A stretch of DNA of 13,229 nt. It comes from a virus (lineage: Duplodnaviria > Heunggongvirae > Uroviricota > Caudoviricetes). Location: the IMG/VR virus record IMGVR_UViG_2698536505_000013, positions 1 through 13,229 of that record. One strand, given 5' to 3'. Below, piece after piece: positions 1 through 13,229 of the stretch (within the stretch, counting starts at the first letter, position 1; each line of letters starts with the position of its first letter). The position numbers and the translations under genes were made by a program. Below the pieces are notes generated by a model. The model saw only the letters and a program-made list of their open reading frames with translations. It had not been told where the DNA came from and made no database searches.

Positions 1-82
1 GCCGGGGAGGAAGGAAACTACCGGATGGAAAGAGTCCCCCTAAAGCAGACTGACAGACATCACAAATCCCCGGGTGGGGATT

Positions 83-98
83 TGTGTATAAGAGACAG
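83..98. other. Exact 16-nt match to the core of the Tn5/IS50 transposase mosaic end (TGTGTATAAGAGACAG); 17/19 to the full 19-bp end
   Basis: Direct reading: positions 80-98 are ATTTGTGTATAAGAGACAG against the mosaic end AGATGTGTATAAGAGACAG. It is immediately preceded by a perfect hairpin, AAATCCCC-gggt-GGGGATTT (64-83). Bases upstream do not match the canonical Nextera adapter arms. Confidence 0.5.
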
Positions 99-364
99 CT
101 GTGCGGAGGGGCGATCAGCAACCAGGTATATGGGATAATCGCGGATTCAGGTGCTGATACTGAATTCACCGGGAGGCACCCGGCACCATGCTTTGCCACA
201 AAAGTGTTGTTTCTGTTTTTCTCAAACTATCATCATTATCCCTTTATTTCCGGCTGCGCATGGCGTGGCCTTTTTTTTACGACCAGCCACTGGCAGATGG
301 CCATCCTGTAATTTGATTCCGGTTCCGGCTTTTTAACTCTGTTCCTGTACACGGGAGAAATTCG

Positions 365-2215
365 ATGTCGATTAAACATTATGATGTTGTCAGGGCGGCG
401 TCGCCGTCAGACCTTGCGGAAAAGCTGACACATAAACTGAAAGAGGGCTGGCAGCCGTTTGGTAGTCCGGTGGCCATAACCCCTTATACCCTGATGCAGG
501 CGATTGCAGCAGAAGGTGATGTGGTGGTCAGTGGTGCAACTGAGCCGGAGTGGTACTACGTCATCGTACTGGCCGGGCAGTCCAATGCCATGGCTTACGG
601 TGAAGGGCTTCCGCTGCCGGATTCATACGATGCTCCGGATCCGCGCATTAAACAGCTGGCGCGCCGCAGTACAGTGACGCCGGGCGGGGCTGCCTGCAGA
701 TATAACGATATTATTCCGGCCGACCACTGCCTGCATGATGTGCAGGATATGAGTACGCTGAATCATCCGAAGGCAGACCTGAGCAAAGGGCAGTATGGCT
801 GTGTCGGCCAGGGCTTACATATTGCCAAAAAACTGCTTCCGTATATCCCGAATAACGCGGGGATCCTGCTGGTACCATGCTGTCGTGGTGGTTCGGCATT
901 CACCCAGGGCGCGGAGGGGACATTCAGTGCGGACGCGGGGGCCAGCCAGGATTCGGCGCGCTGGGGTGTGGGTAAACCGTTATATCAGGACCTGATTGCG
1001 CGCACTAAAGCTGCATTACAGAAGAACCCGAAAAATGTGTTGCTGGCGGTGTGCTGGATGCAGGGAGAGTTTGACATGAGCGCCGCCACCTACGCACAGC
1101 AACCTGCGCTGTTTACAGCCATGCTGAAGCAGTTTCGTGCTGACCTCACTGTGTTTAACGCGCAGTGTCATGGTGGCAGTGCTGTAAATGTGCCGTGGAT
1201 TTGTGGTGACACGACGTATTACTGGAAAAACACCTACGGCACGCAGTACAACACCATTTACGGGGCGTACAAAAACAGGGAGAGTGATGGCGTTTATTTT
1301 GTACCCTTCATGACAGACGGTAACGGCGTCAATACCGCCACTAACGCGCCGACAGAAGATCCGGATATTCCGGCATCAGGATATTACGGTGCGGCATCGA
1401 GAACGAATGGAAACCAGGTATCATCAAACCGCCCGACACATTTCAGTTCATGGGCGCGCAGGAGCATTATTCCGGATCGTCTGGCAACCGCTATTCTGAA
1501 CGCAGCCGGGCGCACCTCAGCCTTCATCAGTGGTAAGGCACCGGAAATCAAACCCTCGCCCGGCGGCAACACACCATCGGGTCCGTCTGCAGATACGTCC
1601 GTTCGCACAATCTCCCTGCTGCCGACAGCCGGAGAGGCTGCTGCGCAGGGCTGGACCATTAAGGACGGCGGAATTCAGTTGTCGGGTGGTGTATTTAAGA
1701 TCGCCAAGCAGAGCAATAAAACCTGGTCCCTGACGCATCCGGTGGATGACGCAATTACCCTGCTGACACAGGGCGGCAGACTGACCTGTAAGTTCCGCCT
1801 GTCAGGCGCACTGACCAACAATCAGTTCGGGCTGGGGATTTATCTGTATACGGACGCTCCCGTTCCTGATGGTGTGGCGATGACGGGTACCGGTAATCCG
1901 TTCCTGATGTCGTACTTCACTCAGACCACTGACGGTAGAGTGAATCTGATGCATCACAGGAAAGCCGGAAACACGAAGCTGGGGGAGTTCGGCGATTACG
2001 GTAACGACTGGCAGACGCTGGAGCTGGTGTTCACCGCCGGCAGTGCCACGGTTACTCCGAAACTGAATGGAGTGGCTGGCCCGGCATTCCAGGTCATAAA
2101 AGACAGTCTGACACTGGGGCTGAATGCGCTGACGCTGACGGATGTTACAAAAAATGCAGCGTATGGCGTTGAGATAGAAAGTCTGGTGCTGGAGATAAAT
2201 GCACCGGCAGCATAA
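365..2215 (+). CDS. nanS-p: Prophage sialate O-acetylesterase-like protein (NanS-p type): N-terminal DUF1737-like region, SGNH-hydrolase core, C-terminal beta-rich putative carbohydrate-binding domain
   Basis: 616-aa ORF with ATG start and a GGGAGA Shine-Dalgarno upstream. It has the GQSNA block typical of the sialate O-acetylesterase/SGNH family and sits directly upstream of the holin, as the 933W-type yjhS/nanS-p gene does. Double stop TAATAA. Confidence 0.8.
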   Translation: MSIKHYDVVRAASPSDLAEKLTHKLKEGWQPFGSPVAITPYTLMQAIAAEGDVVVSGATEPEWYYVIVLAGQSNAMAYGEGLPLPDSYDAPDPRIKQLARRSTVTPGGAACRYNDIIPADHCLHDVQDMSTLNHPKADLSKGQYGCVGQGLHIAKKLLPYIPNNAGILLVPCCRGGSAFTQGAEGTFSADAGASQDSARWGVGKPLYQDLIARTKAALQKNPKNVLLAVCWMQGEFDMSAATYAQQPALFTAMLKQFRADLTVFNAQCHGGSAVNVPWICGDTTYYWKNTYGTQYNTIYGAYKNRESDGVYFVPFMTDGNGVNTATNAPTEDPDIPASGYYGAASRTNGNQVSSNRPTHFSSWARRSIIPDRLATAILNAAGRTSAFISGKAPEIKPSPGGNTPSGPSADTSVRTISLLPTAGEAAAQGWTIKDGGIQLSGGVFKIAKQSNKTWSLTHPVDDAITLLTQGGRLTCKFRLSGALTNNQFGLGIYLYTDAPVPDGVAMTGTGNPFLMSYFTQTTDGRVNLMHHRKAGNTKLGEFGDYGNDWQTLELVFTAGSATVTPKLNGVAGPAFQVIKDSLTLGLNALTLTDVTKNAAYGVEIESLVLEINAPAA

Positions 2216-2224
2216 TAAAAAAAC

Positions 2225-2259
2225 AGCCAGTACTGACTTTCGTCGGAGAAGTACTGGCT
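2225..2259. terminator. Hairpin (9-bp stem AGCCAGTAC/GTACTGGCT, 17-nt loop) directly after the nanS-p stop; A7 run on the 5' side, so a canonical intrinsic terminator only for minus-strand transcripts
   Basis: Perfect inverted repeat seen in sequence. The T-tract is on the minus strand only; the plus-strand 3' flank (AAGAAGGATAG) is not U-rich. Confidence 0.35.
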
Positions 2260-2514
2260 AAGAAGGATAGTTGGGTTTCACATGATACTTATATCTGGCA
2301 GTACATTTTCTGACAGACAGTGACGGATGTTGTCAAGATATTGTGTCATTTATAACCTGAATCAGGGGTTGGTCGGAATGTTATCTGGCATTTTTAGCAG
2401 AGCCTGAATGCCATAATCACGGCTCCCGGCGTTGGCCGTCAGTGGGTGACACTGGCGGCTTTTTGTTTTCCTTTACTTTCATTTTCTGTCGGCGGTGACG
2501 GAGACATACATCAG

Positions 2515-2721
2515 ATGGAAAAAATCACAACAGGTGTGTCATACACCACGTCAGCGGTGGGGACGGGATACTGGTTACTGCAGCTGCTGGACAAAGTCTC
2601 TCCGTCCCAGTGGGTGGCGATAGGTGTGCTGGGGAGTCTGCTGTTTGGCCTGCTGACGTATCTGACTAACCTGTATTTCAAAATCAGAGAGGACCGTCGC
2701 AAGGCTGCCCGGGGAGAGTAA
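2515..2721 (+). CDS. S: Class II holin, phage 21 S21-like pinholin (68 aa)
   Basis: Translation [68 protein letters not shown] has two transmembrane segments and a charged C-terminus, and is close to the phage 21 holin as I recall it. GGAG lies 11 nt upstream of the ATG. The ORF track's longer GTG start at 2446 is a less likely alternative. Confidence 0.85.
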
Positions 2722-2725
2722 AGCG

Positions 2726-3058
2726 ATGAAGAAAAAATACGAACTGGTTGTTAAAGGGATAAATAATTACCCGGATAAGATTACTGTTACTGTGGCACTG
2801 GAAATTGGTGGGTATCCGTCACTGTTGTTGCCAGATGTGGCGATTAGTCTTGACCGTACTGAAGGAGCCACGCTGGAGTTTTACGAAGCTGAGGCGAAAA
2901 AGCAGGCGAAGCAGTTTTTCATGGATGTTGCTGCCGGGTTATGTGAAGGGGATGGTCCGTTGCCGGAAAAGCGGCCCATCATTTTAGAGGCGCAGGATGT
3001 GTTGATAATCTACAGAGGAAAACTACCGGGAATAATTACTGGTTCTCTGAAGACTTAA
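2726..3058 (+). CDS. Conserved hypothetical protein inside the lysis cassette (YdfR/DUF1327-like, from memory); function unknown
   Basis: 110-aa ORF whose ATG is 4 nt after the holin stop, with GGGGAGAG 7 nt upstream. It occupies the holin-endolysin slot, as ydfR does in the K-12 Qin prophage. Its composition is soluble and acidic. Confidence 0.7.
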   Translation: MKKKYELVVKGINNYPDKITVTVALEIGGYPSLLLPDVAISLDRTEGATLEFYEAEAKKQAKQFFMDVAAGLCEGDGPLPEKRPIILEAQDVLIIYRGKLPGIITGSLKT

Positions 3059-3100
3059 CATATCCAGGGATTTGAAATCGATAAACCCTGATAAATATCC

Positions 3101-3634
3101 ATGAACACCAAAATCAAATACGGCCTGTCGGCTGCCGTTCTGGCGCTGATTGCCGCAGGTGCGCCTGCGCCTGAAATCCTCGACCAGTTTCTGGATGAAA
3201 AGGAAGGTAACCACACCACGGCATACCGTGATGGTGCGGGTATCTGGACCATCTGCCGTGGAGCCACCCGGGTGGATGGTAAGCCTGTCCTCCCGGGCAT
3301 GAAGTTGTCGAAGGAAAAATGCGACCAGGTTAACGCCATTGAACGTGATAAGGCGCTGGCATGGGTGGCGAAAAACATCAGAGTGCCACTGACCGAACCC
3401 CAGAAAGCGGGTATTGCGTCATTCTGTCCGTACAACATTGGTCCCGGTAAGTGTTTCCCGTCTACGTTTTACAGACGAATTAATGCAGGTGATCGAAAAG
3501 GTGCCTGCGAAGCGATTCGCTGGTGGATTAAGGACGGTGGCAGAGACTGCCGTATTCGTTCAAACAACTGTTACGGTCAGGTATCCCGTCGTGACCAGGA
3601 GAGCGCGCTGGCGTGCTGGGGAATTGACAGATAA
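3101..3634 (+). CDS. R: SAR endolysin (T4-lysozyme-like muramidase with N-terminal signal-arrest-release domain)
   Basis: 177 aa. The N-terminal Gly/Ala-rich weakly hydrophobic segment GLSAAVLALIAAGAPA is followed by the catalytic E35-x8-D44-x5-T50 spacing of T4-type lysozymes. Pinholin plus SAR endolysin is the established pairing. No obvious Shine-Dalgarno precedes the ATG. Confidence 0.9.
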   Translation: MNTKIKYGLSAAVLALIAAGAPAPEILDQFLDEKEGNHTTAYRDGAGIWTICRGATRVDGKPVLPGMKLSKEKCDQVNAIERDKALAWVAKNIRVPLTEPQKAGIASFCPYNIGPGKCFPSTFYRRINAGDRKGACEAIRWWIKDGGRDCRIRSNNCYGQVSRRDQESALACWGIDR

Positions 3635-3723
3635 GCAGAATATTTTGCTGAAAAATGCGGTTTGCTCACACGGGCGGATAACACGAAATCCTGCGAACTG
3701 GCAAAAACTAAGTGAATAAAAGT

Positions 3724-3756
3724 AAAACCCCGTTTGTTGGCCGCAAGCGGGGTTTT
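3724..3756 (+). terminator. Stem-loop (9-bp stem AAAACCCCG/CGGGGTTTT, 15-nt loop) followed by a U-rich tract, in the R-Rz intergenic insert
   Basis: Perfect inverted repeat with 3' flank TTTTGTGTTT. The large loop is atypical for an intrinsic terminator, so this may instead be an RNA stability or processing element. Confidence 0.35.
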
Positions 3757-3792
3757 GTGTTTCCTGACTCCGGAAAAGTCAAAGGAGAAAGT

Positions 3793-3930
3793 GTGTTTGA
3801 TTTTAGCAAACTGATTCGGGAGATTCGAATGATGGCTGAAAAATTATCCACCTGGAAGTTCATCCTTATCTGGCTGGTGTTTGTGATTATGGCTTCCGGT
3901 TATTTCATTGGTCAGATACGCTGGTGGTGA
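3793..3930 (+). CDS. Small single-pass membrane protein (45 aa from GTG; alternative 33 aa from ATG at 3829) between endolysin and Rz
   Basis: AAAGGAG Shine-Dalgarno lies 5 nt before the in-frame GTG. Translation ...FDFSKLIREIRMMAEKLSTWKFILIWLVFVIMASGYFIGQIRWW has one clear transmembrane helix. Its stop TGA sits 1 nt before the Rz ATG, which suggests translational coupling. Confidence 0.4.
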   Translation: MFDFSKLIREIRMMAEKLSTWKFILIWLVFVIMASGYFIGQIRWW

Positions 3931-3931
3931 A

Positions 3932-4399
3932 ATGAACCGCGTACTGTGCGTGGTCATCATTGCCCTGCTGGTGGCCTGTGGTGCGCTTAGTCTGGGGCTG
4001 AATCATTACCGTGATAACGCCATAACCTACAAAGAGCAGCGCGATAAAAAAGTCAGTGAGCTGGAGCTGGCAAATGCAACCATTACTGATATGCAGGTGC
4101 GCCAGCGCGATGTTGCTGCGCTCGATGCAAAATACTCGAGGGAATTAGCCGATGCGAGAGCTGAAAATGAAACTCTGCGTGCTGATGTTGCCGCTGGTCG
4201 TAAGCGCCTGCGGATCAACGCCACCTGCTCCGGTACCGTGCGTGAAGCCACCGGCACCTCCGGAATGGATAATGCAACCGGCCCCCGACTGGCAGACACC
4301 GCTGAACGGGATTATTTCACCCTCAGAGAGCGGTTGATGACAATGCAGAAGCAACTGGAAGGGGCACAGGACTATATCCGCACTCAGTGCCTGAAATAA
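3932..4399 (+). CDS. Rz: Inner-membrane spanin subunit (i-spanin) Rz
   Basis: Translation from the ATG at 3932 (MNRVLCVVIIALLVACGALSLGLNHYRDNAITYK...RLADTAERDYFTLRERLMTMQKQLEG...) is collinear with lambda Rz: N-terminal transmembrane segment, coiled coil. The track's TTG start at 3908 is less likely. Confidence 0.9.
   Translation: MNRVLCVVIIALLVACGALSLGLNHYRDNAITYKEQRDKKVSELELANATITDMQVRQRDVAALDAKYSRELADARAENETLRADVAAGRKRLRINATCSGTVREATGTSGMDNATGPRLADTAERDYFTLRERLMTMQKQLEGAQDYIRTQCLK
4152..4337 (+). CDS. Rz1: Outer-membrane lipoprotein spanin subunit (o-spanin) Rz1, embedded in the +1 frame of Rz
   Basis: Translation MRELKMKLCVLMLPLVVSACGS... has a lipobox (LVVSAC) and a proline-rich mature part (PPAPVPCVKPPAPPEWIMQPAPDWQTPLNGIISPSE), nearly collinear with lambda Rz1. 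It lies wholly inside Rz. An alternative start is the ATG at 4167. Confidence 0.8.
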   Translation: MRELKMKLCVLMLPLVVSACGSTPPAPVPCVKPPAPPEWIMQPAPDWQTPLNGIISPSESG

Positions 4400-4749
4400 G
4401 TTTTGTTGATGCGCCGTATCGTCGCTGTATTCCCTCATTAACAGAGACCGCAGCCCGACAGGGAGACTCCTCTGCGCGAGTGTGCGGGGATAATCAAAAA
4501 CGATACACACCGGGGTTTACCGCGTTAACGGAGCGCGGCGTTGTCCCCTCATAGTCGCCTGTCCGGTGCGATGGTGGAAGAAGCCGGATGTTTATCACTA
4601 TTAATTGATGACACAGAAATGGATTCATTGAATTTCAGCACGTTTTTGTATTCGTGTTATTGAACATCTGTTTATTTTACTTTTAACATATTGATAATAA
4701 AAAGAGCTGTAAATCTTTAGATGAGTCGATTTTGTCCGGGGAAGTTCAA

Positions 4750-4890
4750 ATGGATTTTATGCTGACGGTTTCTGGTGTGGTTATCCTGTCCATTGCTTAT
4801 ACTGCAGATAAATATGGCTGCCATTTGTTATCACGTATTGGCGCTTATTGTTCGTTGATGCTGATTTTCTCGTCGCTTTTTTTTGAGTAA
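4750..4890 (+). CDS. Hypothetical 46-aa hydrophobic peptide in the AT-rich moron gap
   Basis: ATG ORF (MDFMLTVSGVVILSIAYTADKYGCHLLSRIGAYCSLMLIFSSLFFE) with two hydrophobic stretches and a weak GGGGAAG Shine-Dalgarno-like sequence upstream. It is below the 60-aa ORF-track cutoff and found by manual reading. I do not recognise homologs. Confidence 0.25.
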   Translation: MDFMLTVSGVVILSIAYTADKYGCHLLSRIGAYCSLMLIFSSLFFE

Positions 4891-5022
4891 GTTATATTAA
4901 TTATAACAAATAATTTTCTGTGTTATTTTTTCAGGCTATCCCGTCAGAGGGGAAGCCTGTACTGCCGGGGAGCGAATGGAAAACTGATGTGTCCGGTAAC
5001 TGCGTGTTCTGTGAACACCATG

Positions 5023-5208
5023 TTACTTAATTATGTAATTCATACCCGAACTCTCTGTTGACAGCCTTCTTCTGCAGGCTTCAATAACCCACGCTGAAAA
5101 GTTACTGGACCCTTTATGCTCAAGGGCGATGTTGATCTGTTCAATCATGTGATTGGGGAAACGGATATTGCGGGTTGTGGTTCTGCGGGTCCGGTTTTTC
5201 GATGACAT
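5023..5208 (-). CDS. YlcI-like (DUF3950-type) small basic protein, putative DNA-binding; 61 aa
   Basis: Minus-strand translation MSSKNRTRRTTTRNIRFPNHMIEQINIALEHKGSSNFSAWVIEACRRRLSTESSGMNYIIK. AAGGA lies 8 nt upstream of this ATG, which is why I prefer it to the track's longer 81-aa start. From memory it resembles DLP12 YlcI. It is divergent from the HNH gene. Confidence 0.6.
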   Translation of the reverse strand: MSSKNRTRRTTTRNIRFPNHMIEQINIALEHKGSSNFSAWVIEACRRRLSTESSGMNYIIK

Positions 5209-5249
5209 ATTTATTTCCTTTACTGATTGCCATATGACGGGGATTTTAC

Positions 5250-5615
5250 ATGGCTGAGCTTCGTACACTCCAGAGCAGAATCAAAACTCTGAACACCCGA
5301 CGGGTGAATATTCTGAAGGGGGAACAGCGTCGTGTCAGTGGCAGTGCACGTGTTTCCCTCAAGCGTCATATCTGGCTCAGGGATGCCGGGCAGTGCTGTC
5401 TCTGTGGTCGTGTGGTTGACCTCTGTGACAGTGAACTCGATCACCGCATTGCACTTCAGTTCGGTGGTGGTAATGAGGAGACGAATCTCTGGACGCTCTG
5501 TACCGAATGCCATCGCCAGAAGTCAGTCAGTGAAACGGCGAGTGGTATGCCGGACCCGACGCTGCCGGAGGTGTCCGGAGGTCATGGCAGGGCAGACGAT
5601 ATCATCGGACTGTGA
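5250..5615 (+). CDS. HNH endonuclease (terminase-associated, HK97 gp74-like)
   Basis: 121 aa with paired Cys motifs (CCLCGR ... CTECH) and an HNH core (ELDHRIALQFGGGNEETNLWTLCTECHRQK). GGGGA Shine-Dalgarno. It lies immediately upstream of the packaging region and terminase genes, as in HK97-like phages. Confidence 0.9.
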   Translation: MAELRTLQSRIKTLNTRRVNILKGEQRRVSGSARVSLKRHIWLRDAGQCCLCGRVVDLCDSELDHRIALQFGGGNEETNLWTLCTECHRQKSVSETASGMPDPTLPEVSGGHGRADDIIGL

Positions 5616-5704
5616 TCCGCCCCGGGGGGGGATCATCCGGCGAAAAAAACGATCGCCCCGGACACCGCCCCCCCTCTCATGCAGAGAAAAAATTCCTGTT
5701 TCAG

Positions 5705-5833
5705 GCCAGTTAACATGTTAACTGGCTGCCCGGGCATTTTTGCGGTTTTTATCTTTATTATTCAGTTTGTTGTGCGAAAAAAATGTTAACTGGCTTTTTC
5801 AGCAAATGTTAACCAGGCAGCAGTTAACATTTG
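5705..5833. other. Candidate cos / packaging-initiation region: cluster of palindromes and repeated TGTTAAC motifs in the HNH-terS intergenic space
   Basis: 22-bp perfect palindrome GCCAGTTAACATGTTAACTGGC (5705-5726); 10-bp palindrome TGCCCGGGCA (5727-5736); AAATGTTAACTGGC (5781-5794); inverted repeat CAAATGTTAAC-n9-GTTAACATTTG (5803-5833); intervening AT-rich tract; C/G homopolymer block CCGCCCCGGGGGGGG at 5617-5631. Confidence 0.45.
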
Positions 5834-5904
5834 CGGCATGAGACGCCGGGAAAAATGGGCTGAACCATACCCGGCTGAGTGCGTTATGGACCCGGGAGGA
5901 GGCT

Positions 5905-6468
5905 GTGCTGACAACGCAAAAACGAAAATTTGCGCTGGCGCTCATGTCCGGGAAAAACAAAACAGCGTCAGCCATTGCCGCCGGTTATTCGGCGAAGACC
6001 GCCAGGGTTAAAGGCTCGCAGCTGGCAAAAGATCCGGAGGTGCTCGCGTTTATAGCCCGTAAACAGTGCGAAACGGTGGAGGTGGATGAGGTTCCTGTTT
6101 ACCGGCAGAAAAAATCAGAGCAGGAGGATAAACCCCGTCGTCGTGAGGTGGCTGCAATAACACAGCCGGACGAAAACAATCCGGAGATGCCTCCGCCCGC
6201 GGTGATATCTCATGGTATTGAATATATGGAGGATGGTCTTCCCGATCCGGTGAAAGCTATGGGGCAGATCCTGGTGGAAAACCTGATAATTGACCCGAAA
6301 CTGGCACTGGATGCGGCCTGGCGACTGGCGCAGTTCACACACCATAAAAAAGGCGATGCCGGTAAAAAATCGGCAAAAGGTGATGCCGTGAAAAAAGCGG
6401 CTAACCGTTTTGCGGTGCCACCACCTCCCCGGCTGGTGGTGAATAACCAGAATGAGGAAAGCGGATGA
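5905..6468 (+). CDS. terS: Terminase small subunit
   Basis: 187 aa with GTG start and GGGAGGAGG Shine-Dalgarno. N-terminal HTH-like segment (KRKFALALMSGKNKTASAIAAGYSAKTARVKGSQLAKDPEV) and a basic, low-complexity C-terminus. Its stop overlaps the terL start (ATGA). Confidence 0.8.
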   Translation: MLTTQKRKFALALMSGKNKTASAIAAGYSAKTARVKGSQLAKDPEVLAFIARKQCETVEVDEVPVYRQKKSEQEDKPRRREVAAITQPDENNPEMPPPAVISHGIEYMEDGLPDPVKAMGQILVENLIIDPKLALDAAWRLAQFTHHKKGDAGKKSAKGDAVKKAANRFAVPPPPRLVVNNQNEESG

Positions 6469-8126
6469 TACCTGTATGGAGCACGGCATGTCCGGACTGG
6501 GCAGAGCGCCTGAAAAAGGGGCTGTCGATTATTCCGGCTCCGATTTATCCGGACCAGGCTGCACATGCACTGGCGATTTTTAAACAACTGCGAATTGTGG
6601 ATGCACCGGGTAGCCCGACATTCGGGGAGTCCTGTGCACCGTGGGTGTTTGACCTGGTGGCGGCCCTGTTTGGCTCCTACGATGCGCAGACCGGTGTTCG
6701 CCATATCAAGGAAGTGTTTATCCTTATCCCCAAGAAAAACAGTAAGTCCACGCTGGCCGCGGGGATCATGATGACGGCGCTGTTACTGAACTGGCGGCAG
6801 GCGGCGGGCTACACCATTCTGGCCCCGACCGTGGAGGTGGCGGCTAACGCCTTCAACCCTGCCAGGGATATGGTACGACGGGACGATGATCTGGATGACC
6901 TCTGTCAGGTGCAGACACATATCCGGACCATCACCCATCGGGTGACGGACACCACCCTGAAGGTGGTGGCAGCCGATCCGAATACGGTGTCCGGTATCAA
7001 GTCCGTGGGGACACTGATTGATGAACTGTGGCTGTTTGGCAAGCAGTACAAAGCGGAAGACATGCTACGTGAAGCCATCGGCGGGCTTGCCTCCCGTCCG
7101 GAAGGATTTGTGGTGTACACAACCACCCAGTCGAATGAACCGCCTGCCGGGGTGTTCAGACAGAAACTGCAGTACGCCCGGGATGTCCGTGACGGCAAAA
7201 TTCATGATCCGCACTTTCTGCCGGTGATATTTGAACACCCTCCTGAAATGGTGGAAAGCGGGGCTCACCTGCTGATGGAAAACCTCGCCATGGTTAACCC
7301 GAATCTCGGTTATTCGGTGGATGAGGCCTTTCTGTACCGGGAGTACCGTAAAGCCCGGGAAGCCGGTGAAGAGACATTCCGGGGGTTCATGTCAAAACAC
7401 GCCAATGTGGAAATTGGTCTTGCCCTGCGCTCTGACCGCTGGGCGGGGGCTGATTTCTGGGAAGAGCAGGGCCGTTGTATCAGCCTGGACGATATCCTGC
7501 GTCGTGCTGATGTGGTGACGGTGGGGATTGACGGCGGAGGGCTGGATGATCTGCTGGGGATGTATGTGATTGGGCGTGACCGGGAGACCCGCGAATGGCT
7601 GGGCTGGGGCCATGCCTGGGCGCATGAAACCGCGGTGGTCAGACGGAAGAGTGAGGCATCCCGGTTTCAGGATTTTGTGGCCTGTGGAGACATGACGATT
7701 GTCCGTCGGGTCGGGGATGACACGGCGGAAGTGGCGGAGTATGTGCGTCGTATTCATGAGGCTGAGTTACTGGATCATATCGGTATTGACCCGTCAGGTG
7801 TGGGGCAGATTCTGGATTCACTGGCGGAAGCCGGGATCCCCGATGAGAGTGTGGTGGGGATAAGCCAGGGCTGGAAGCTGGGCGGGGCCATCAAAACCAC
7901 CGAGCGCAAACTGGCTGAGGGAGTGCTGGTGCATGGTGGTCAGCCACTGATGGCCTGGTGCGTTGGCAATGCCCGGGTGGAGCCTAAAGGTAACGCCATT
8001 CTTATCACCAAACAGGCCAGCGGACGGGGAAAAATTGACCCACTGATGGCGCTCTTCAATGCGGTGTCCCTGATGTCCCTGAATCCGGAACCGAAAAAGA
8101 AAGCGTATGAGGTTTTTTTCATATAA
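6465..8126 (+). CDS. terL: Terminase large subunit (ATPase plus nuclease)
   Basis: 553 aa, translationally coupled to terS. It has a P-loop-like segment (ILIPKKNSKSTLAAG) and C-terminal acidic nuclease-like blocks (VVTVGIDGGG, IGIDPSGVG). Its position between terS and the capsid genes supports the call. Confidence 0.9.
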   Translation: MIPVWSTACPDWAERLKKGLSIIPAPIYPDQAAHALAIFKQLRIVDAPGSPTFGESCAPWVFDLVAALFGSYDAQTGVRHIKEVFILIPKKNSKSTLAAGIMMTALLLNWRQAAGYTILAPTVEVAANAFNPARDMVRRDDDLDDLCQVQTHIRTITHRVTDTTLKVVAADPNTVSGIKSVGTLIDELWLFGKQYKAEDMLREAIGGLASRPEGFVVYTTTQSNEPPAGVFRQKLQYARDVRDGKIHDPHFLPVIFEHPPEMVESGAHLLMENLAMVNPNLGYSVDEAFLYREYRKAREAGEETFRGFMSKHANVEIGLALRSDRWAGADFWEEQGRCISLDDILRRADVVTVGIDGGGLDDLLGMYVIGRDRETREWLGWGHAWAHETAVVRRKSEASRFQDFVACGDMTIVRRVGDDTAEVAEYVRRIHEAELLDHIGIDPSGVGQILDSLAEAGIPDESVVGISQGWKLGGAIKTTERKLAEGVLVHGGQPLMAWCVGNARVEPKGNAILITKQASGRGKIDPLMALFNAVSLMSLNPEPKKKAYEVFFI

Positions 8127-8151
8127 CCCTGCTCACCCTGTAACCATCATG

Positions 8152-8177
8152 AACCGCTGCGGCGGTTTTTTTATTTT
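8152..8177 (+). terminator. Intrinsic-terminator-like hairpin (6-bp stem AACCGC/GCGGTT, 4-nt loop) with T-tract, between terL and the protease-capsid gene
   Basis: Sequence AACCGCtgcgGCGGTTTTTTTATTTTC, followed at once by the CAGGAGG Shine-Dalgarno of the next gene. Confidence 0.5.
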
Positions 8178-8189
8178 CAGGAGGCTGAT

Positions 8190-10127
8190 GTGACTCTTAA
8201 ACGGGCCTGTTCCCTACTGACGGTGAAATCCTTCAGTGAGGATGAACGGGTGATCACCGGGATTGCGTCAACGCCTTCTCCGGATCGGGATGGTGACATC
8301 CTGGAGCCGGAGGGGGCGGAGTTTGGCAGTACGATCCCGTTTCTCTGGCAGCATGACCATTCCCGCCCTGTAGGCCAGTGTACGGTGCGTCGGGTCAGGG
8401 AAGGGCTGGAAATCACGGCAATGCTGGTGAAGCCGGAGCCGGGGATGCCCTCCCAGATGGCAGCCCGGCTGGATGAGGTCTGGGCGGCCATTAAGACCGG
8501 GCTGGTCAGGGGGCTGTCCGTGGGCTTCCGTCCCCATGAATACACCTTTCTGGACGGAGGCGGACTGCATTTTCTGCGCTGGGAACTGATGGAGGTGTCT
8601 GCCGTCACCGTGCCCGCGAATGCGGAATGCACCATCCGGACCATTAAATCTTACGACCGCCCGTTTTCTGCCGCGTCCGGCAACCGGAAACCGGTGGTGA
8701 AAATCGCATCTTCTGCCGGCGCTGCGGCACAGTCAACAACCGTTTTTCATAAGGAAAAGACCATAATGAATATTGGCGAACAGATTAAAAGTTTTGAAAA
8801 CAAGCGTGCAGCGCTGGCAGCCTCCCTTGAGGAGGTCATGACCAAAGCCGCAGAGGAAGGGCGCACGCTGGATGTGGAGGAGGAAGAGCATTACGACAAC
8901 ACCGCAGCGGAAATCCGTCAGGTGGATGCGCACCTGAAGCGCCTGCGTGAACTGGAAGCCGGTAAGGCCGCCACGGCGCAGCCGGTGAAACAGGCCGGTA
9001 ACGGGAATGTGGCCGCGGTGGCTTCAGCGCCGGTGATCCGTGTGGAGCAGAAACTGGAGAAGGGGATTGGCTTCGCCCGCTTTGCCAAATCGCTGGCTGC
9101 GGCTAAAGGCGTCCGATCTGAAGCCCTGGAAGTGGCCCGTCGTCAGTATCCGGATGACAGTCGTCTGCATCATGTCCTGAAATCGGCAGTGGGCGCGGGG
9201 ACCACCACGGATCCGCAGTGGGCAGGCAGCCTGTCTGAATATCAGGAATACGCACAGGACTTTATTGATTACCTGCGTCCGCAGACCATTATCGGGCGAT
9301 TTGGTCAGGGCGGGATCCCTGCACTTCGTCAGGTGCCGTTCAATATCCGTGTGCACGCCCAGGTGTCCGGCGGTGCTGCCGGCTGGGTGGGTGAGGGTAA
9401 GGCAAAACCCCTGACGAAGTTTGATTTTGAATCCATCACCTTCAGTCATGCGAAAGTGTCGGCCATTGCGGTACTGACGGAAGAATTGATCCGTTTTTCC
9501 AGTCCGGCTGCTGATGCACTGGTCCGTAATGCGCTGGCGGAAGCGGTAGTGGCGCGTCTGGATACAGACTTTGTGGACCCGAAAAAAGCGGCGGTGGCGG
9601 ATGTCTCCCCGGCGTCCATCACCCATGATGTGAAGGGCATGGCATCAACCGGTAACCCGGATGCGGATGCCGAGGCCGCGTTTGGCCAGTTTGTGACGGC
9701 AAATCTGCAGCCCACTGGTGCTGTCTGGCTGATGTCCAGCACGAATGCCCTGGCGCTGTCCATGCGTAAAAATGCGCTGGGTCAGAAGGAATACCCGGAC
9801 ATGACCCTGCTTGGCGGCACCTTCCAGGGCCTGCCGGTGATTGTCTCCCAGTACGTGGGTGACCAGCTGGTGCTGGTGAATGCGCCGGATATTTATCTGG
9901 CTGATGACGGCGGTGTGGCGGTGGATATGTCCCGTGAAGCGTCACTGGAGATGCAGTCTGAGCCGGGCGGCGACAGCACCACACCGTCCCCGGTGGAGCT
10001 GGTTTCCATGTTCCAGACAGGCAGCGTGGCCATCCGTGCGGAGCGCTGGATCAACTGGCGTCGTCGCCGTACTGCGGCGGTGGCGGTGATCACCGGAGTG
10101 AACTACGGCAGTGCGTCCGGCGGCTGA
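8190..10127 (+). CDS. Prohead protease (HK97/S78 family) fused in frame to an HK97-fold major capsid protein
   Basis: 645 aa from GTG with AGGAGG 5 nt upstream. The N-terminal ~170 aa carry protease motifs (WQHDH, GLSVGFRP, ELMEVSAVTVPAN). From M193 (internal ATG 8766, AAGGA 10 nt upstream) the sequence looks like a capsid delta domain and HK97-like capsid body. No stop separates the two parts. Confidence 0.85.
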   Translation: MTLKRACSLLTVKSFSEDERVITGIASTPSPDRDGDILEPEGAEFGSTIPFLWQHDHSRPVGQCTVRRVREGLEITAMLVKPEPGMPSQMAARLDEVWAAIKTGLVRGLSVGFRPHEYTFLDGGGLHFLRWELMEVSAVTVPANAECTIRTIKSYDRPFSAASGNRKPVVKIASSAGAAAQSTTVFHKEKTIMNIGEQIKSFENKRAALAASLEEVMTKAAEEGRTLDVEEEEHYDNTAAEIRQVDAHLKRLRELEAGKAATAQPVKQAGNGNVAAVASAPVIRVEQKLEKGIGFARFAKSLAAAKGVRSEALEVARRQYPDDSRLHHVLKSAVGAGTTTDPQWAGSLSEYQEYAQDFIDYLRPQTIIGRFGQGGIPALRQVPFNIRVHAQVSGGAAGWVGEGKAKPLTKFDFESITFSHAKVSAIAVLTEELIRFSSPAADALVRNALAEAVVARLDTDFVDPKKAAVADVSPASITHDVKGMASTGNPDADAEAAFGQFVTANLQPTGAVWLMSSTNALALSMRKNALGQKEYPDMTLLGGTFQGLPVIVSQYVGDQLVLVNAPDIYLADDGGVAVDMSREASLEMQSEPGGDSTTPSPVELVSMFQTGSVAIRAERWINWRRRRTAAVAVITGVNYGSASGG

Positions 10128-10142
10128 GTCTGATGAGGAGGA

Positions 10143-10162
10143 CGGGAGGCGTGCGCCTCCCG
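10143..10162 (+). other. GC-rich hairpin (8-bp stem CGGGAGGC/GCCTCCCG, loop GTGC) 16 nt downstream of the capsid gene stop; no U-tract
   Basis: Perfect inverted repeat seen in sequence. It may be a transcript-stabilising 3' structure for the capsid mRNA rather than a terminator. Confidence 0.4.
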
Positions 10163-10171
10163 TAACAGGTT

Positions 10172-10393
10172 ATGGCAAAGATCCGATATCTGCAGGGCAC
10201 GCATGATGCCCGGGCCGGGGATATCCGTGATGTGGCACAGCCGTGTGCGGAGGTGCTGGTTCGCCTGGGGAAGGCGGAGTACATCACAGTGCGACGTCCG
10301 GCAGGTCAGAAAAAGAAACGTGATGCGGAGCATGGCGAATGTGGAACCTTTTGCGGCGAACCCGAAAAAACCAGAAATCAGGACGTGATGTAA
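10172..10393 (+). CDS. Hypothetical 73-aa protein between capsid and portal genes
   Basis: ATG ORF with gene-like codon usage (MAKIRYLQGTHDARAGDIRDVAQPCAEVLVRLGKAEYITVRRPAGQKKKRD...). It overlaps the proposed portal start by 55 nt and has no obvious Shine-Dalgarno, so the call is tentative. Confidence 0.3.
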   Translation: MAKIRYLQGTHDARAGDIRDVAQPCAEVLVRLGKAEYITVRRPAGQKKKRDAEHGECGTFCGEPEKTRNQDVM

Positions 10394-11703
10394 AAGAGGT
10401 GGGCTGGACCAGCCTGTTTCAGGCGGTGGCTGAGCCTTTTGCCGGTGCCTGGCAGCAGGGCGTGAAAGCCGATCCGGAAAGTGTCCTCTCCTTTCATGCG
10501 GTGTTTTCTTGCATTTCGCTGATATCCCAGGATATCGCCAAAATGCGACTGCGCCTGATGCAGACCGATACACAGGGGATCCGCCGTGAAAAACGGCAGG
10601 GGGATATTGCCCGTCTCTGTCGTCGTCCCAATGCACAGCAGAATCGTATCCAGTTTTTTGAACTGTGGCTGAACGCCAAACTGCGTCACGGCAATACGGT
10701 GGTGCTGAAAATCCGTAACTCCCGGGGGCAGATCAAAGAACTGCGTATTCTGGACTGGAGCCGGGTTGAACCTCTGGTGGCGGATGACGGCGAGGTGTTC
10801 TATCGCATTACACCGGACCGGAACTGCGGGATCACGGAGGCGGTGACGGTGCCTGCCCGGGAAGTGATCCACGACCGGTTTAACTGTTTTTTTCATCCGC
10901 TTGTGGGGCTGCCGCCGGTGTATGCCGCCGGGCTGGCGGCCACGCAGGGGCATCATATTCAGGCAAATTCAACGTCTTTTTTCAGAAATGGCGGCAGGCC
11001 GTCCGGGGTGATTGAGATCCCCGGCAGTATAACGGAAGAAAATGCGAAAAAACTGAAGAGCAACTGGGACAGCGGGTATACCGGCGAAAATGCGGGGAAA
11101 ACGGCGATCCTGAGCAACGGGGCGAAATATAACCCCACGACGTTTTCACCGGTGGATGCGCAGACGGTGGAACAACTGAAGATGACGGCTGAAATTGTCT
11201 GTTCGGTGTTCCGTGTCCCGGCCTACAAGATTGGCGTTGGCCAGCCGCCTTCCAGTGACAACGTGGAGGCGCTGGAGCAGCAGTATTATTCCCAGTGTCT
11301 GCAGACGCTGATTGAGTCCATTGAGCTGTTACTGGATGAGGCGCTGGAAACGGGGGAAAACGAGAGCACGGAGTTTGACGTCACCACGCTGCTGAGAATG
11401 GACAGCGAACGGCGCATGAAAACACTGGGTGAATCGGTGAAAAATACGCTTCTCACGCCCAATGAGGCCCGTAAACGTGAGAACCTGCCGCCCCTGGCCG
11501 GCGGTGATGCACTGTATCTTCAGCAGCAGAACTACAGTCTGGAGGCGCTGTCCCGTCGTGATGCCCGTGAAGATCCGTTTGCGTCGTCCGGGAAAAGAGT
11601 TTCAGCCCAACTGCCTGACGGCGCATCTGACGGTAATAAGGCAATCAGTGAAACAGAGCATGGTGCGTTGAAAGCGATGTTGAGGGGGATACTGAGAAAA
11701 TGA
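10339..11703 (+). CDS. Portal protein (HK97-family portal)
   Basis: 454 aa from ATG. The N-terminal region PESVLSFHAVFSCISLISQDIAKMRLRL and C-terminal blocks (FRVPAYKIGVG, LLRMDSERRMKTLGE, LTPNEARKRENLPPLAGGDALY) are typical of HK97-type portals. The start is uncertain within about 60 nt. Confidence 0.85.
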   Translation: MWNLLRRTRKNQKSGRDVKEVGWTSLFQAVAEPFAGAWQQGVKADPESVLSFHAVFSCISLISQDIAKMRLRLMQTDTQGIRREKRQGDIARLCRRPNAQQNRIQFFELWLNAKLRHGNTVVLKIRNSRGQIKELRILDWSRVEPLVADDGEVFYRITPDRNCGITEAVTVPAREVIHDRFNCFFHPLVGLPPVYAAGLAATQGHHIQANSTSFFRNGGRPSGVIEIPGSITEENAKKLKSNWDSGYTGENAGKTAILSNGAKYNPTTFSPVDAQTVEQLKMTAEIVCSVFRVPAYKIGVGQPPSSDNVEALEQQYYSQCLQTLIESIELLLDEALETGENESTEFDVTTLLRMDSERRMKTLGESVKNTLLTPNEARKRENLPPLAGGDALYLQQQNYSLEALSRRDAREDPFASSGKRVSAQLPDGASDGNKAISETEHGALKAMLRGILRK

Positions 11704-12761
11704 CGGAACGGGAACTGTCCATTATTCGTGCACTGGGCGAAGAATTCGCCACGGTGCTGGCGGATTTACAGCACACATTTGAGGAGAAGATGGCCGCGCA
11801 GGCACAAGCGTTTGAAGAGAAACTGGCTTCCCTGTCGGCGGTATTACAGAAGCATGTGACGGTGGATGAGGTACATCCGGTTCTGCAGGCGATGGTGGAT
11901 GACGCTGTGGGGACCATTCCGGTACCGCGTGATGGTCGTGATTATGATCCGGATGTACTGCAGCAGGCGGTGAATGATGCGGTTGCGAATATTCCGGTAC
12001 CGGCGGACGGCAAAAGTATCACCCCCGATGATGTGCGTCCGATGCTTGAGCAGATGGTGAAAGAGGCTGTAAGCCATATCCCTGCTCCGCGTGACGGTCG
12101 TGATTATGATCCGGATGTACTGCAGCAGGCGGTGAATGATGCGGTTGCGAATATTCCGGTACCGGCGGACGGCAAAAGTATCACCCCCGATGATGTGCGT
12201 CCGATGCTTGAGCAGATGGTGAAAGAGGCCGTAAGCCATATCCCTGCTCCGCGTGATGGTCGTGATTACGATCCGGAAGTACTGAAGCAGGCGGTTCTGG
12301 AGGCGGTGAATGCCCTTCCGGCTCCGCAGGACGGGCGTGATGCCACGGCACTGGAAGTGCTCCCCGCCATTGACGATCAAAAATCCTTTCCCCGGGGCAC
12401 GTATGCCACACACCTTGGAGGACTCTGGCGGGCGTATGAAAAAACGCACGGGATGCGGGGATGGGAATGCCTGGTTGACGGGGTGGCGGATATTGACGTC
12501 AGTATGACGGGTGAGCGGTTGTTCTCTGTGGTGATCCGGCAGAGCAGTGGCCAGTGTACGGAAAAAACATTTTCCCTGCCGGTGATGCTCTACCGCGGAG
12601 TGTTCAGAGCCGGTGAAACCTACCACCCCGGCGATACGGTGACGTGGGGGGGCTCGCTGTGGCACTGCAACAGTATGACCGCCGATAAACCGGGGGATGC
12701 GCATGCATCTGGCTGGACGCTGGCTGCCAAACGGGGACGGGATGCTGGAGGCGGAAAATGA
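11700..12761 (+). CDS. Repeat-containing structural protein: N-terminal coiled coil, six ~27-aa repeats, C-terminal carbohydrate-binding-like domain; candidate head decoration/fibre protein
   Basis: 353 aa, ATG overlapping the portal stop (ATGA), GAGGGGGA Shine-Dalgarno. The repeats have the form V..L.QAV.DAV..IP.P.DG. The C-terminus (YRGVFRAGETYHPGDTVTWGGSLWHCNSMTADKPGDAHASGWTL) resembles CBM5/12-type modules. Its stop overlaps the next gene. Confidence 0.8.
   Translation: MTERELSIIRALGEEFATVLADLQHTFEEKMAAQAQAFEEKLASLSAVLQKHVTVDEVHPVLQAMVDDAVGTIPVPRDGRDYDPDVLQQAVNDAVANIPVPADGKSITPDDVRPMLEQMVKEAVSHIPAPRDGRDYDPDVLQQAVNDAVANIPVPADGKSITPDDVRPMLEQMVKEAVSHIPAPRDGRDYDPEVLKQAVLEAVNALPAPQDGRDATALEVLPAIDDQKSFPRGTYATHLGGLWRAYEKTHGMRGWECLVDGVADIDVSMTGERLFSVVIRQSSGQCTEKTFSLPVMLYRGVFRAGETYHPGDTVTWGGSLWHCNSMTADKPGDAHASGWTLAAKRGRDAGGGK
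11925..12248 (+). repeat. In-frame tandem duplication, 2 x 162 bp (160/162 identical), plus a diverged partial third copy (12249-~12340)
   Basis: Copy 1 is 11925-12086 and copy 2 is 12087-12248. They differ at two positions (gatggt/gacggt and gaggct/gaggcc). Each encodes a 54-aa unit, PRDGRDYDPDVLQQAVNDAVANIPVPADGKSITPDDVRPMLEQMVKEAVSHIPA. Confidence 0.95.
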
Positions 12762-13084
12762 CGGCATTACTGACACTGGAAGAGATCAAGGCACATCTGC
12801 GTGTCGACTATGACGCGGATGATGACATGCTGATGGACAAGGTTCGTCAGGCTACCGCCGTGCTGCTGGCCTACATTCAGGGCAGCCGGGATAAGGTGAT
12901 TCGTGAGGACGGTGAGCTGATCCCGGGCGAGGCATTAACCCGGATGAAGGGGGCTGCCATGCGACTGACCGGGATGCTGTACCGGAATCCGGATCTTGCT
13001 GAGCGGGAAGACCTCGTGCAGGGGGAACTGCCGTTTTCTGTGTCCGTGCTGATTTACGATTTGCGTTGTCCGACGGTGTTATGA
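12758..13084 (+). CDS. Head-tail connector / adaptor protein (gp6-like)
   Basis: 108 aa, ATG overlapping the upstream stop (ATGA), GGAGG Shine-Dalgarno. The N-terminus MTALLTLEEIKAHLRVDYDADDDMLMDKV matches the characteristic start of gp6-like connector proteins. Confidence 0.8.
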   Translation: MTALLTLEEIKAHLRVDYDADDDMLMDKVRQATAVLLAYIQGSRDKVIREDGELIPGEALTRMKGAAMRLTGMLYRNPDLAEREDLVQGELPFSVSVLIYDLRCPTVL

Positions 13085-13229
13085 GGAGGGAGGAATGGCA
13101 ATATCGTAAGCGACTCGTCAGAACCGTATTGATATTTACTGAGAGCTCAGATCAACTTTCCAGGGCAACAGATCGCGTACCCGGTTTGCCGGCCAGTCCT
13201 GGATATGTTCAATGACGTAACGCAGCCAC

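Follow-up and report, generated by a model that had tools for sequence, protein, structure and literature searches.

A mosaic-end-like sequence at the edge of a lambdoid prophage contig and its assignment to the insertion sequence ISEc13

The window, which means here the whole 13,229-bp stretch of viral DNA that was analysed, carries near its first base a sequence closely resembling the end of transposon Tn5. Such a sequence could be the end of a genuine insertion sequence, a remnant of a transposase adapter or a native prophage sequence with accidental similarity, and the answer decides whether the first 98 bases belong with the prophage genes that follow. The plus strand reads ATTTGTGTATAAGAGACAG at positions 80-98. 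Its reverse complement, CTGTCTCTTATACACAAAT, was the sole site in the 13,229-bp window within three mismatches of the mosaic end CTGTCTCTTATACACATCT. It differs from the mosaic end at two bases (17/19), having AA instead of TC at positions 17-18, and shows the same degree of identity (17/19) to the IS50 outside end CTGACTCTTATACACAAGT. The outside and inside ends were compared with a real IS50 copy on a Citrobacter plasmid (locus L009), and the oligonucleotide table of PMC3347997 served to confirm the reference sequences of the mosaic and outside ends. The preliminary description had reported an exact 16/16 match to the mosaic end at 83-98, a 17/19 match of the 19-mer at 80-98 to both ends and a very low probability of chance origin. 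Direct comparison supported all three, with only 0.01 chance matches expected.

Identity of bases 1-98

The segment formed by bases 1-98 was found in 1,608 of 5,426 complete E. coli genomes (about 30%), where it lies at unrelated loci of chromosomes and plasmids and can occur as often as 31 times in one genome. At every place that was opened, it formed the end of an element whose gene is labelled 'IS4-like element ISEc13 family transposase' in RefSeq, and the name ISEc13 used here rests on this RefSeq/PGAP label. In these annotated copies the 19-mer sits at the IS boundary and is accompanied by target duplications. Bases 1-98 are 100% identical to the annotated copies and represent, on the minus strand, nucleotides 1-98 of the IS, the contig holding only these 98 nt of the element. 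They form part of the 5' untranslated leader of the transposase gene, the start codon of which lies at IS nucleotide 166, beyond the contig. The outermost 19 bp (80-98, minus strand) constitute the terminal inverted repeat CTGTCTCTTATACACAAAT, which agrees with the consensus of the IS50 subgroup besides its likeness to the outside and mosaic ends, and is a putative binding and cleavage site of the transposase by analogy with Tn5. Inside the repeat, the stretch TTATACACA occupies window 83-91 on the minus strand; in IS50 this stretch is presumably a DnaA box. On the basis of these matches, bases 1-98 are almost certainly the transposase-proximal, outside-end-like end of ISEc13, inserted in a lambdoid prophage. 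This terminus at the contig edge is that of an already known element and is ordinary as such.

The assignment to ISEc13 bears directly on the suspicion that the segment is a tagmentation artefact, that is, a leftover Nextera mosaic end joined to genomic DNA where the contig stops. The 16/16 mosaic-end match close to a contig end speaks for such an origin, and against it stand several observations. A Nextera or EZ-Tn5 product would carry the exact 19-nt mosaic end joined to an adapter arm, whereas the match here is 17/19 and the bases preceding position 80 differ from the two Nextera arms at 11 of 14 and 9 of 15 positions. The absence of canonical arms from the flank, remarked on earlier, was thereby reproduced. 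All 98 nt, including the 79 nt upstream of the 19-mer, are ISEc13 sequence of 1,608 complete genomes, in which the 19-mer lies at an annotated IS boundary with target duplications. The same segment is also present in E2348/69 (NC_011601.1), which we take to be a capillary-sequenced genome predating Nextera. An adapter origin, one of the two readings that had been offered for the segment, is therefore exceedingly improbable, and the other reading, a genuine IS50/IS4-family terminus with the interior of the element to the left of position 98, outside the window, proved to be the appropriate one, the element being ISEc13. The resemblance to the mosaic end reflects homology, because the mosaic end was engineered by combining the two IS50 ends (PMC3347997), of which the ISEc13 ends are natural homologues. 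The ISEc13 end shares 16 contiguous bases with the mosaic end and naturally has T at position 4, one of the bases that the mosaic end derives from the inside end, but it continues into IS-specific interior sequence and not into adapter arms.

That the segment stands beside prophage DNA is the only point in favour of a native prophage sequence with a chance likeness to a Tn5 end. Bases 1-110 had no match among 50,697 phage records, and homology to phages and to E. coli prophages began exactly at base 99 in every match. Related prophages lack bases 1-98 and read straight across the site, and the segment is multicopy at unrelated chromosomal and plasmid loci. Hence the probability of a native prophage sequence is negligible.

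The window is a complete contig, CYAI01000055.1 of the draft assembly GCA_001277655.1 (13,229 bp; bases 1700-13229 identical), to which the 353-aa protein encoded in the window led, so that the contig edge supposed in the preliminary description is real. It contains late genes of a prophage (esterase, lysis, terminase, capsid, portal and connector genes) between two different IS ends. The first prophage gene downstream of the IS end (365-2215, plus strand) encodes a 616-aa carbohydrate esterase with SASA, DUF1737 and DUF6645 assignments; it gives the context and does not belong to the IS. It is followed in order by lysis, terminase, capsid and portal genes. On the left, the outermost 98 nt of the contig are ISEc13 sequence, and on the right the outermost 124 nt belong to an ISCro1-like element of the IS66 family. 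The right-hand IS end (13106-13229) begins with GTAAGCGACTCG (starting GTAAGCG), and uninterrupted relatives read GGCAATATC|TGCAGGTCG (TGCAGG...) at this junction. The head-tail connector gene ends at 13084, shortly before the point of insertion of the IS66-family element. Two other draft contigs, CYEY01000002.1 and CYEG01000073.1, break in the same IS66-family element at the same junction. The contig breaks thus coincide with multicopy IS repeats, which a short-read assembler probably failed to resolve. The rest of ISEc13 is missing because the window is a whole draft contig that ends inside a multicopy IS.

The junction at 98/99 and its unoccupied counterparts

Prophages identical to the window downstream of the IS read uninterrupted through the site as ...GGTGAATCCCC-CTGTGCGG-AGGGGCGATCAGC..., and therefore the break at 98/99 is a junction between IS and target. 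The 8-bp sequence CTGTGCGG at 99-106 (plus strand) is the right-hand copy of the target-site duplication. It is present only once in the unoccupied prophages, the flanks being identical, and it flanks both ends of a full copy in E2348/69. It is followed at 107-111 (plus strand) by AGGGG, the right half of a CCCC...GGGG target hairpin that the insertion has split, as recognized from the empty-site sequence and from 14 independent sites. The left half of this hairpin, ...GAATCCCC, lies outside the contig, past the opposite end of the IS. In unoccupied prophages the complete empty site is gaatccccCTGTGCGGaggggcg. The contigs found to encode the esterase of the window were all long, and at this position they were either unoccupied, which made them empty-site controls, or had another module upstream.

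A full ISEc13 copy of 1,550 bp occupies the same site in the EPEC strain E2348/69 (NC_011601.1 1443100-1444649; locus L001 2549-4098). It has the orientation and the site seen in the window and carries the 8-bp direct repeat CTGTGCGG at both ends. Window bases 1-110 show 100% identity to E2348/69 and to three other assemblies of that lineage. The copy is situated in a lambdoid prophage with a Q antiterminator and two tRNA genes on one side and an esterase gene on the other. Comparison of this locus (L001 4113-4467) with window 113-365 showed that the first 90 bp or so after the IS are common, with four substitutions, and that thereafter, up to the esterase start (about 190-370), no similarity remains, the two loci differing by an insertion of about 100 bp and by unrelated sequence. 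Judged from the aligned sequences, the E2348/69 locus is a related prophage of a different variant from that in the window. The site common to both could stem either from one old insertion followed by recombination or from two independent insertions into one hairpin.

A clean break at 98/99 had been named beforehand as a sign of a chimera. The break is clean, yet it is an IS-to-target junction at the exact terminus of the IS, followed by the 8-mer that is duplicated in E2348/69. A different question is whether a true ISEc13 end was wrongly joined, during assembly, to a prophage locus that is free of the IS in that strain. The repeats at both contig ends speak for such a misjoin, and the exact junction with its flank occurs in no other record searched: the IS plus flank beyond about position 112 was absent from the collection of complete E. 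coli genomes, and the exact junction was absent from viral contigs (searched with a 50-mer) and from a one-genome-per-species set and metagenome contigs (each searched with a 30-mer). Against this, a join at the very last base of the IS is unexpected for a misjoin, the 8-mer followed by AGGG and preceded by CCCC in the empty site is the motif of 14 of 14 independent insertions, and the position coincides with that of the E2348/69 insertion. Misassembly is consequently very unlikely, if a shade less so than an adapter residue or a native sequence. The continuity across 98/99 in this strain rests on the precision of the junction, the target motif and the E2348/69 precedent. Bases 1-98 are not prophage DNA, and most likely they nevertheless truly adjoin the prophage in this strain.

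A course of events for the insertion can be proposed by homology with Tn5. The ISEc13 transposase would bind the 19-bp repeat and its partner end and pair both ends, and a precise cut at ...CAG| would then excise the element. The target here would be the hairpin CCCC-CTGTGCGG-AGGGG. The 3' ends of the element would be joined to staggered target positions, and subsequent repair would produce the duplication of CTGTGCGG. The left junction of the same insertion would be expected to read ...GGTGAATCCCCCTGTGCGG followed by CTGTCTCTTGATCAG. This presumes that the ISEc13 transposase acts by the cut-and-paste chemistry of Tn5, with a hairpin intermediate, as its homology to the Tn5 enzyme over the full length and its conserved catalytic residues suggest.

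Anatomy of ISEc13 and its relation to IS50

The full copy in E2348/69 supplied the parts of the element that lie beyond the contig. The transposase gene is on the minus strand of L001 and starts 165 bp inside the end that corresponds to the window. The distal end reads CTGTCTCTTGATCAGATCT and is identical at 19/19 positions to the inside end of IS50, both GATC sites included. The IS4-family transposase and the inverted partner end, which the preliminary description had proposed to look for, are thus found in full copies, with the start codon about 165 bp inside and the partner end about 1.5 kb away; within the window, no inside-end-like partner end was detected. A scan of the full IS gave no match to a sigma-70 consensus promoter.

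The transposase is a single uninterrupted ORF of 457 aa. The Tn5 transposase structures (PDB 1MUH, 1MUS and 4DM0) matched it over the full length with E = 7e-83, and in the Pfam search the Tnp_DNA_bind and DDE_Tnp_1 families matched while Dimer_Tnp_Tn5 remained just below the cut-off. Its identity to the IS50R transposase is 39-42%. The residues D93, D193 and E323 of ISEc13 align with the Tn5 residues D97, D188 and E326, and Y316, R319 and K330 with Y319, R322 and K333. Met56, the start of the Tn5 inhibitor, has no conserved counterpart in ISEc13.

The IS50 subgroup of the IS4 family is described by a size of 1350-1550 bp, direct repeats of 8-9 bp, a DDE transposase with the motif Y-(2)-R-(3)-E-(6)-K and ends of the form CW------Y---CA-A--W- (PMC2266710). 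The full ISEc13 copy L001 is 1,550 bp long and encodes a DDE transposase with the YREK motif. The duplication is mostly 8 bp, with sites of 10 and 11 bp also existing. Both terminal repeats, CTGTCTCTTATACACAAAT and CTGTCTCTTGATCAGATCT, conform to the end consensus at positions 1, 2, 9, 13, 14, 16 and 19. ISEc13 is accordingly a member of the IS50 subgroup and a natural relative of IS50/Tn5.

The overall organization of ISEc13 is that of IS50, with a single transposase ORF that starts near the outside-end-like repeat and stops inside the inside-end repeat. The distal end agrees with the inside end at all 19 positions and the proximal end with the outside end at 17 of 19. The last-named identity, along with the 17/19 to the mosaic end, is what could recommend IS50/Tn5 itself, or a laboratory mini-Tn5 or EZ-Tn5 insertion, as the source of bases 1-98. 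However, the end differs from that of IS50 at two positions, the interior is unrelated, and DNA identity is only 53% overall. ISEc13 has an extra leader of about 80 nt and a length of 1,550 bp compared with 1,534 bp for IS50. The transposases are only about 40% identical, and the duplication, mostly 8 bp in ISEc13, was 9 bp at the one IS50 copy examined. The strict CCCT/AGGG target context of ISEc13 is a further difference from IS50/Tn5. An IS50 or Tn5-derived insertion has practically no probability, and the segment is best regarded as ISEc13.

The two elements also differ in the structure of their ends, since the leader at the outside end of IS50 folds no better than shuffled sequence while ISEc13 has strong hairpins at both ends. 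Window 61-86 forms a perfect hairpin with an 11-bp stem, CACAAATCCCC GGGT GGGGATTTGTG, the arms being 61-71 and 76-86. Its folding energy was -18.2 / -18.6 kcal/mol, with z-scores of -4.1 / -4.9 against shuffles, and it shares 7 bp with the inner part of the terminal repeat. A perfect hairpin beside the 19-mer had been seen earlier and considered native; it is longer than was then described, and it is native in the sense that it belongs to the leader of ISEc13 and not to the phage. A second hairpin, with a 13-bp stem and -21 kcal/mol, overlaps the inside end. This distal palindrome (L001 2549-2581) is perfect over 13 bp, GTCTCTTGATCAG atctc CTGATCAAGAGAC, and also encodes the C-terminus and stop codon of the transposase. 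A terminator scan called neither of the end hairpins because no T-run follows either of them, and a simple role as intrinsic terminator is for that reason unsupported for ISEc13 itself. The most likely role of the hairpin at 61-86, proposed with low confidence, is to reduce read-through into the transposase gene, whether by transcription or by translation.

A relative from the IS4 family on the Vibrio owensii plasmid CP030800.1 (L021 395-450 and 1855-1899) encodes a transposase 52% identical to that of ISEc13. Its proximal 19-bp end is identical to that of ISEc13, its distal end has three mismatches to the IS50 inside end, and hairpins occur at the same positions at both ends. The proximal hairpin has a different stem sequence and is followed by T8, unlike that of ISEc13 which has no T-run, and the distal palindrome shows a compensatory change from CAG/CTG to CAC/GTG. 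The structures were kept while the sequence changed between ISEc13 and the Vibrio relative, which argues that the hairpins function. The relative lies within a terminator-like hairpin that closely follows a RelE/ParE toxin gene, and its target duplication is 9 bp.

Target choice of ISEc13 and implications

Target context was examined at window 95-111 and at the junctions of loci L001, L003-L008 and L010-L020. The target analysis comprised 14 independent insertions of ISEc13, nine of which were chosen without flank-similarity bias. Locus L013 (NZ_CP134805.1 209883-213595) was left out of it. This locus holds a degenerate copy, a pseudogene with an internal stop, with 11 extra bases, CTGTCTTACAG, outside the inside end and no recognisable target duplication. 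Counted from the duplication, positions -4 and -2 were C and positions +2 and +4 were G at all 14 sites, and the consensus reads CCCT | duplication | AGGG. Ten sites had a duplication of 8 bp and two sites one of 9 bp, and lengths of 10 and 11 bp occurred once each. The 10- and 11-bp duplications were verified by means of the reconstructed empty sites, which agree with the lysP-cirA and dgcJ loci of other E. coli genomes, where no insertion interrupts them (100% identity over 180 nt). With these longer duplications, CCCT and AGGG still directly abut both junctions. When folded, the reconstructed empty sites gave hairpins with a mean of -18.1 kcal/mol compared with -7.5 kcal/mol for random 44-mers from the same loci. 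The GC-rich target hairpins are mostly situated between neighbouring gene ends, where they are terminator-like, or in BoxC-like repeats.

These features point, quite tentatively, to a mode of target choice in ISEc13 and its relatives that differs from that of Tn5. Joining might occur directly 3' of CCCT on each strand, between the CCCT and AGGG half-sites of GC-rich hairpins, so that the spacing of the two half-sites and not a fixed stagger would set a duplication of 8-11 bp; at present this is a possible reading, with the greater probability lying elsewhere. The conserved end hairpins could contribute to the same target biology; they might, for instance, insulate the IS or stand in for the terminator that the insertion destroys. 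The literature found on ISEc13 consists of resistome and mobilome listings with no biology described. Concerning the targeting of terminators or hairpins by insertion sequences, nothing on the IS50 subgroup was found in the searchable literature, to which ISfinder and much of the Tn5 literature do not belong. Targeting of CCCT/AGGG half-sites may be a new observation.

An ISEc13 end naturally begins with the same 16 nt as the Nextera adapter sequence, and about 30% of the complete E. coli genomes carry the element. Read trimmers with a short Nextera seed (e.g. CTGTCTCTTATA) will clip genuine reads that enter the ISEc13 end from the flank, and naive adapter screens of assemblies will flag ISEc13 ends as contamination. 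Within the prophage, ISEc13 separates the late genes from the regulatory region, which in E2348/69 holds the Q and tRNA genes, and it runs antisense to late transcription; this position could affect the expression of the late genes of the prophage.
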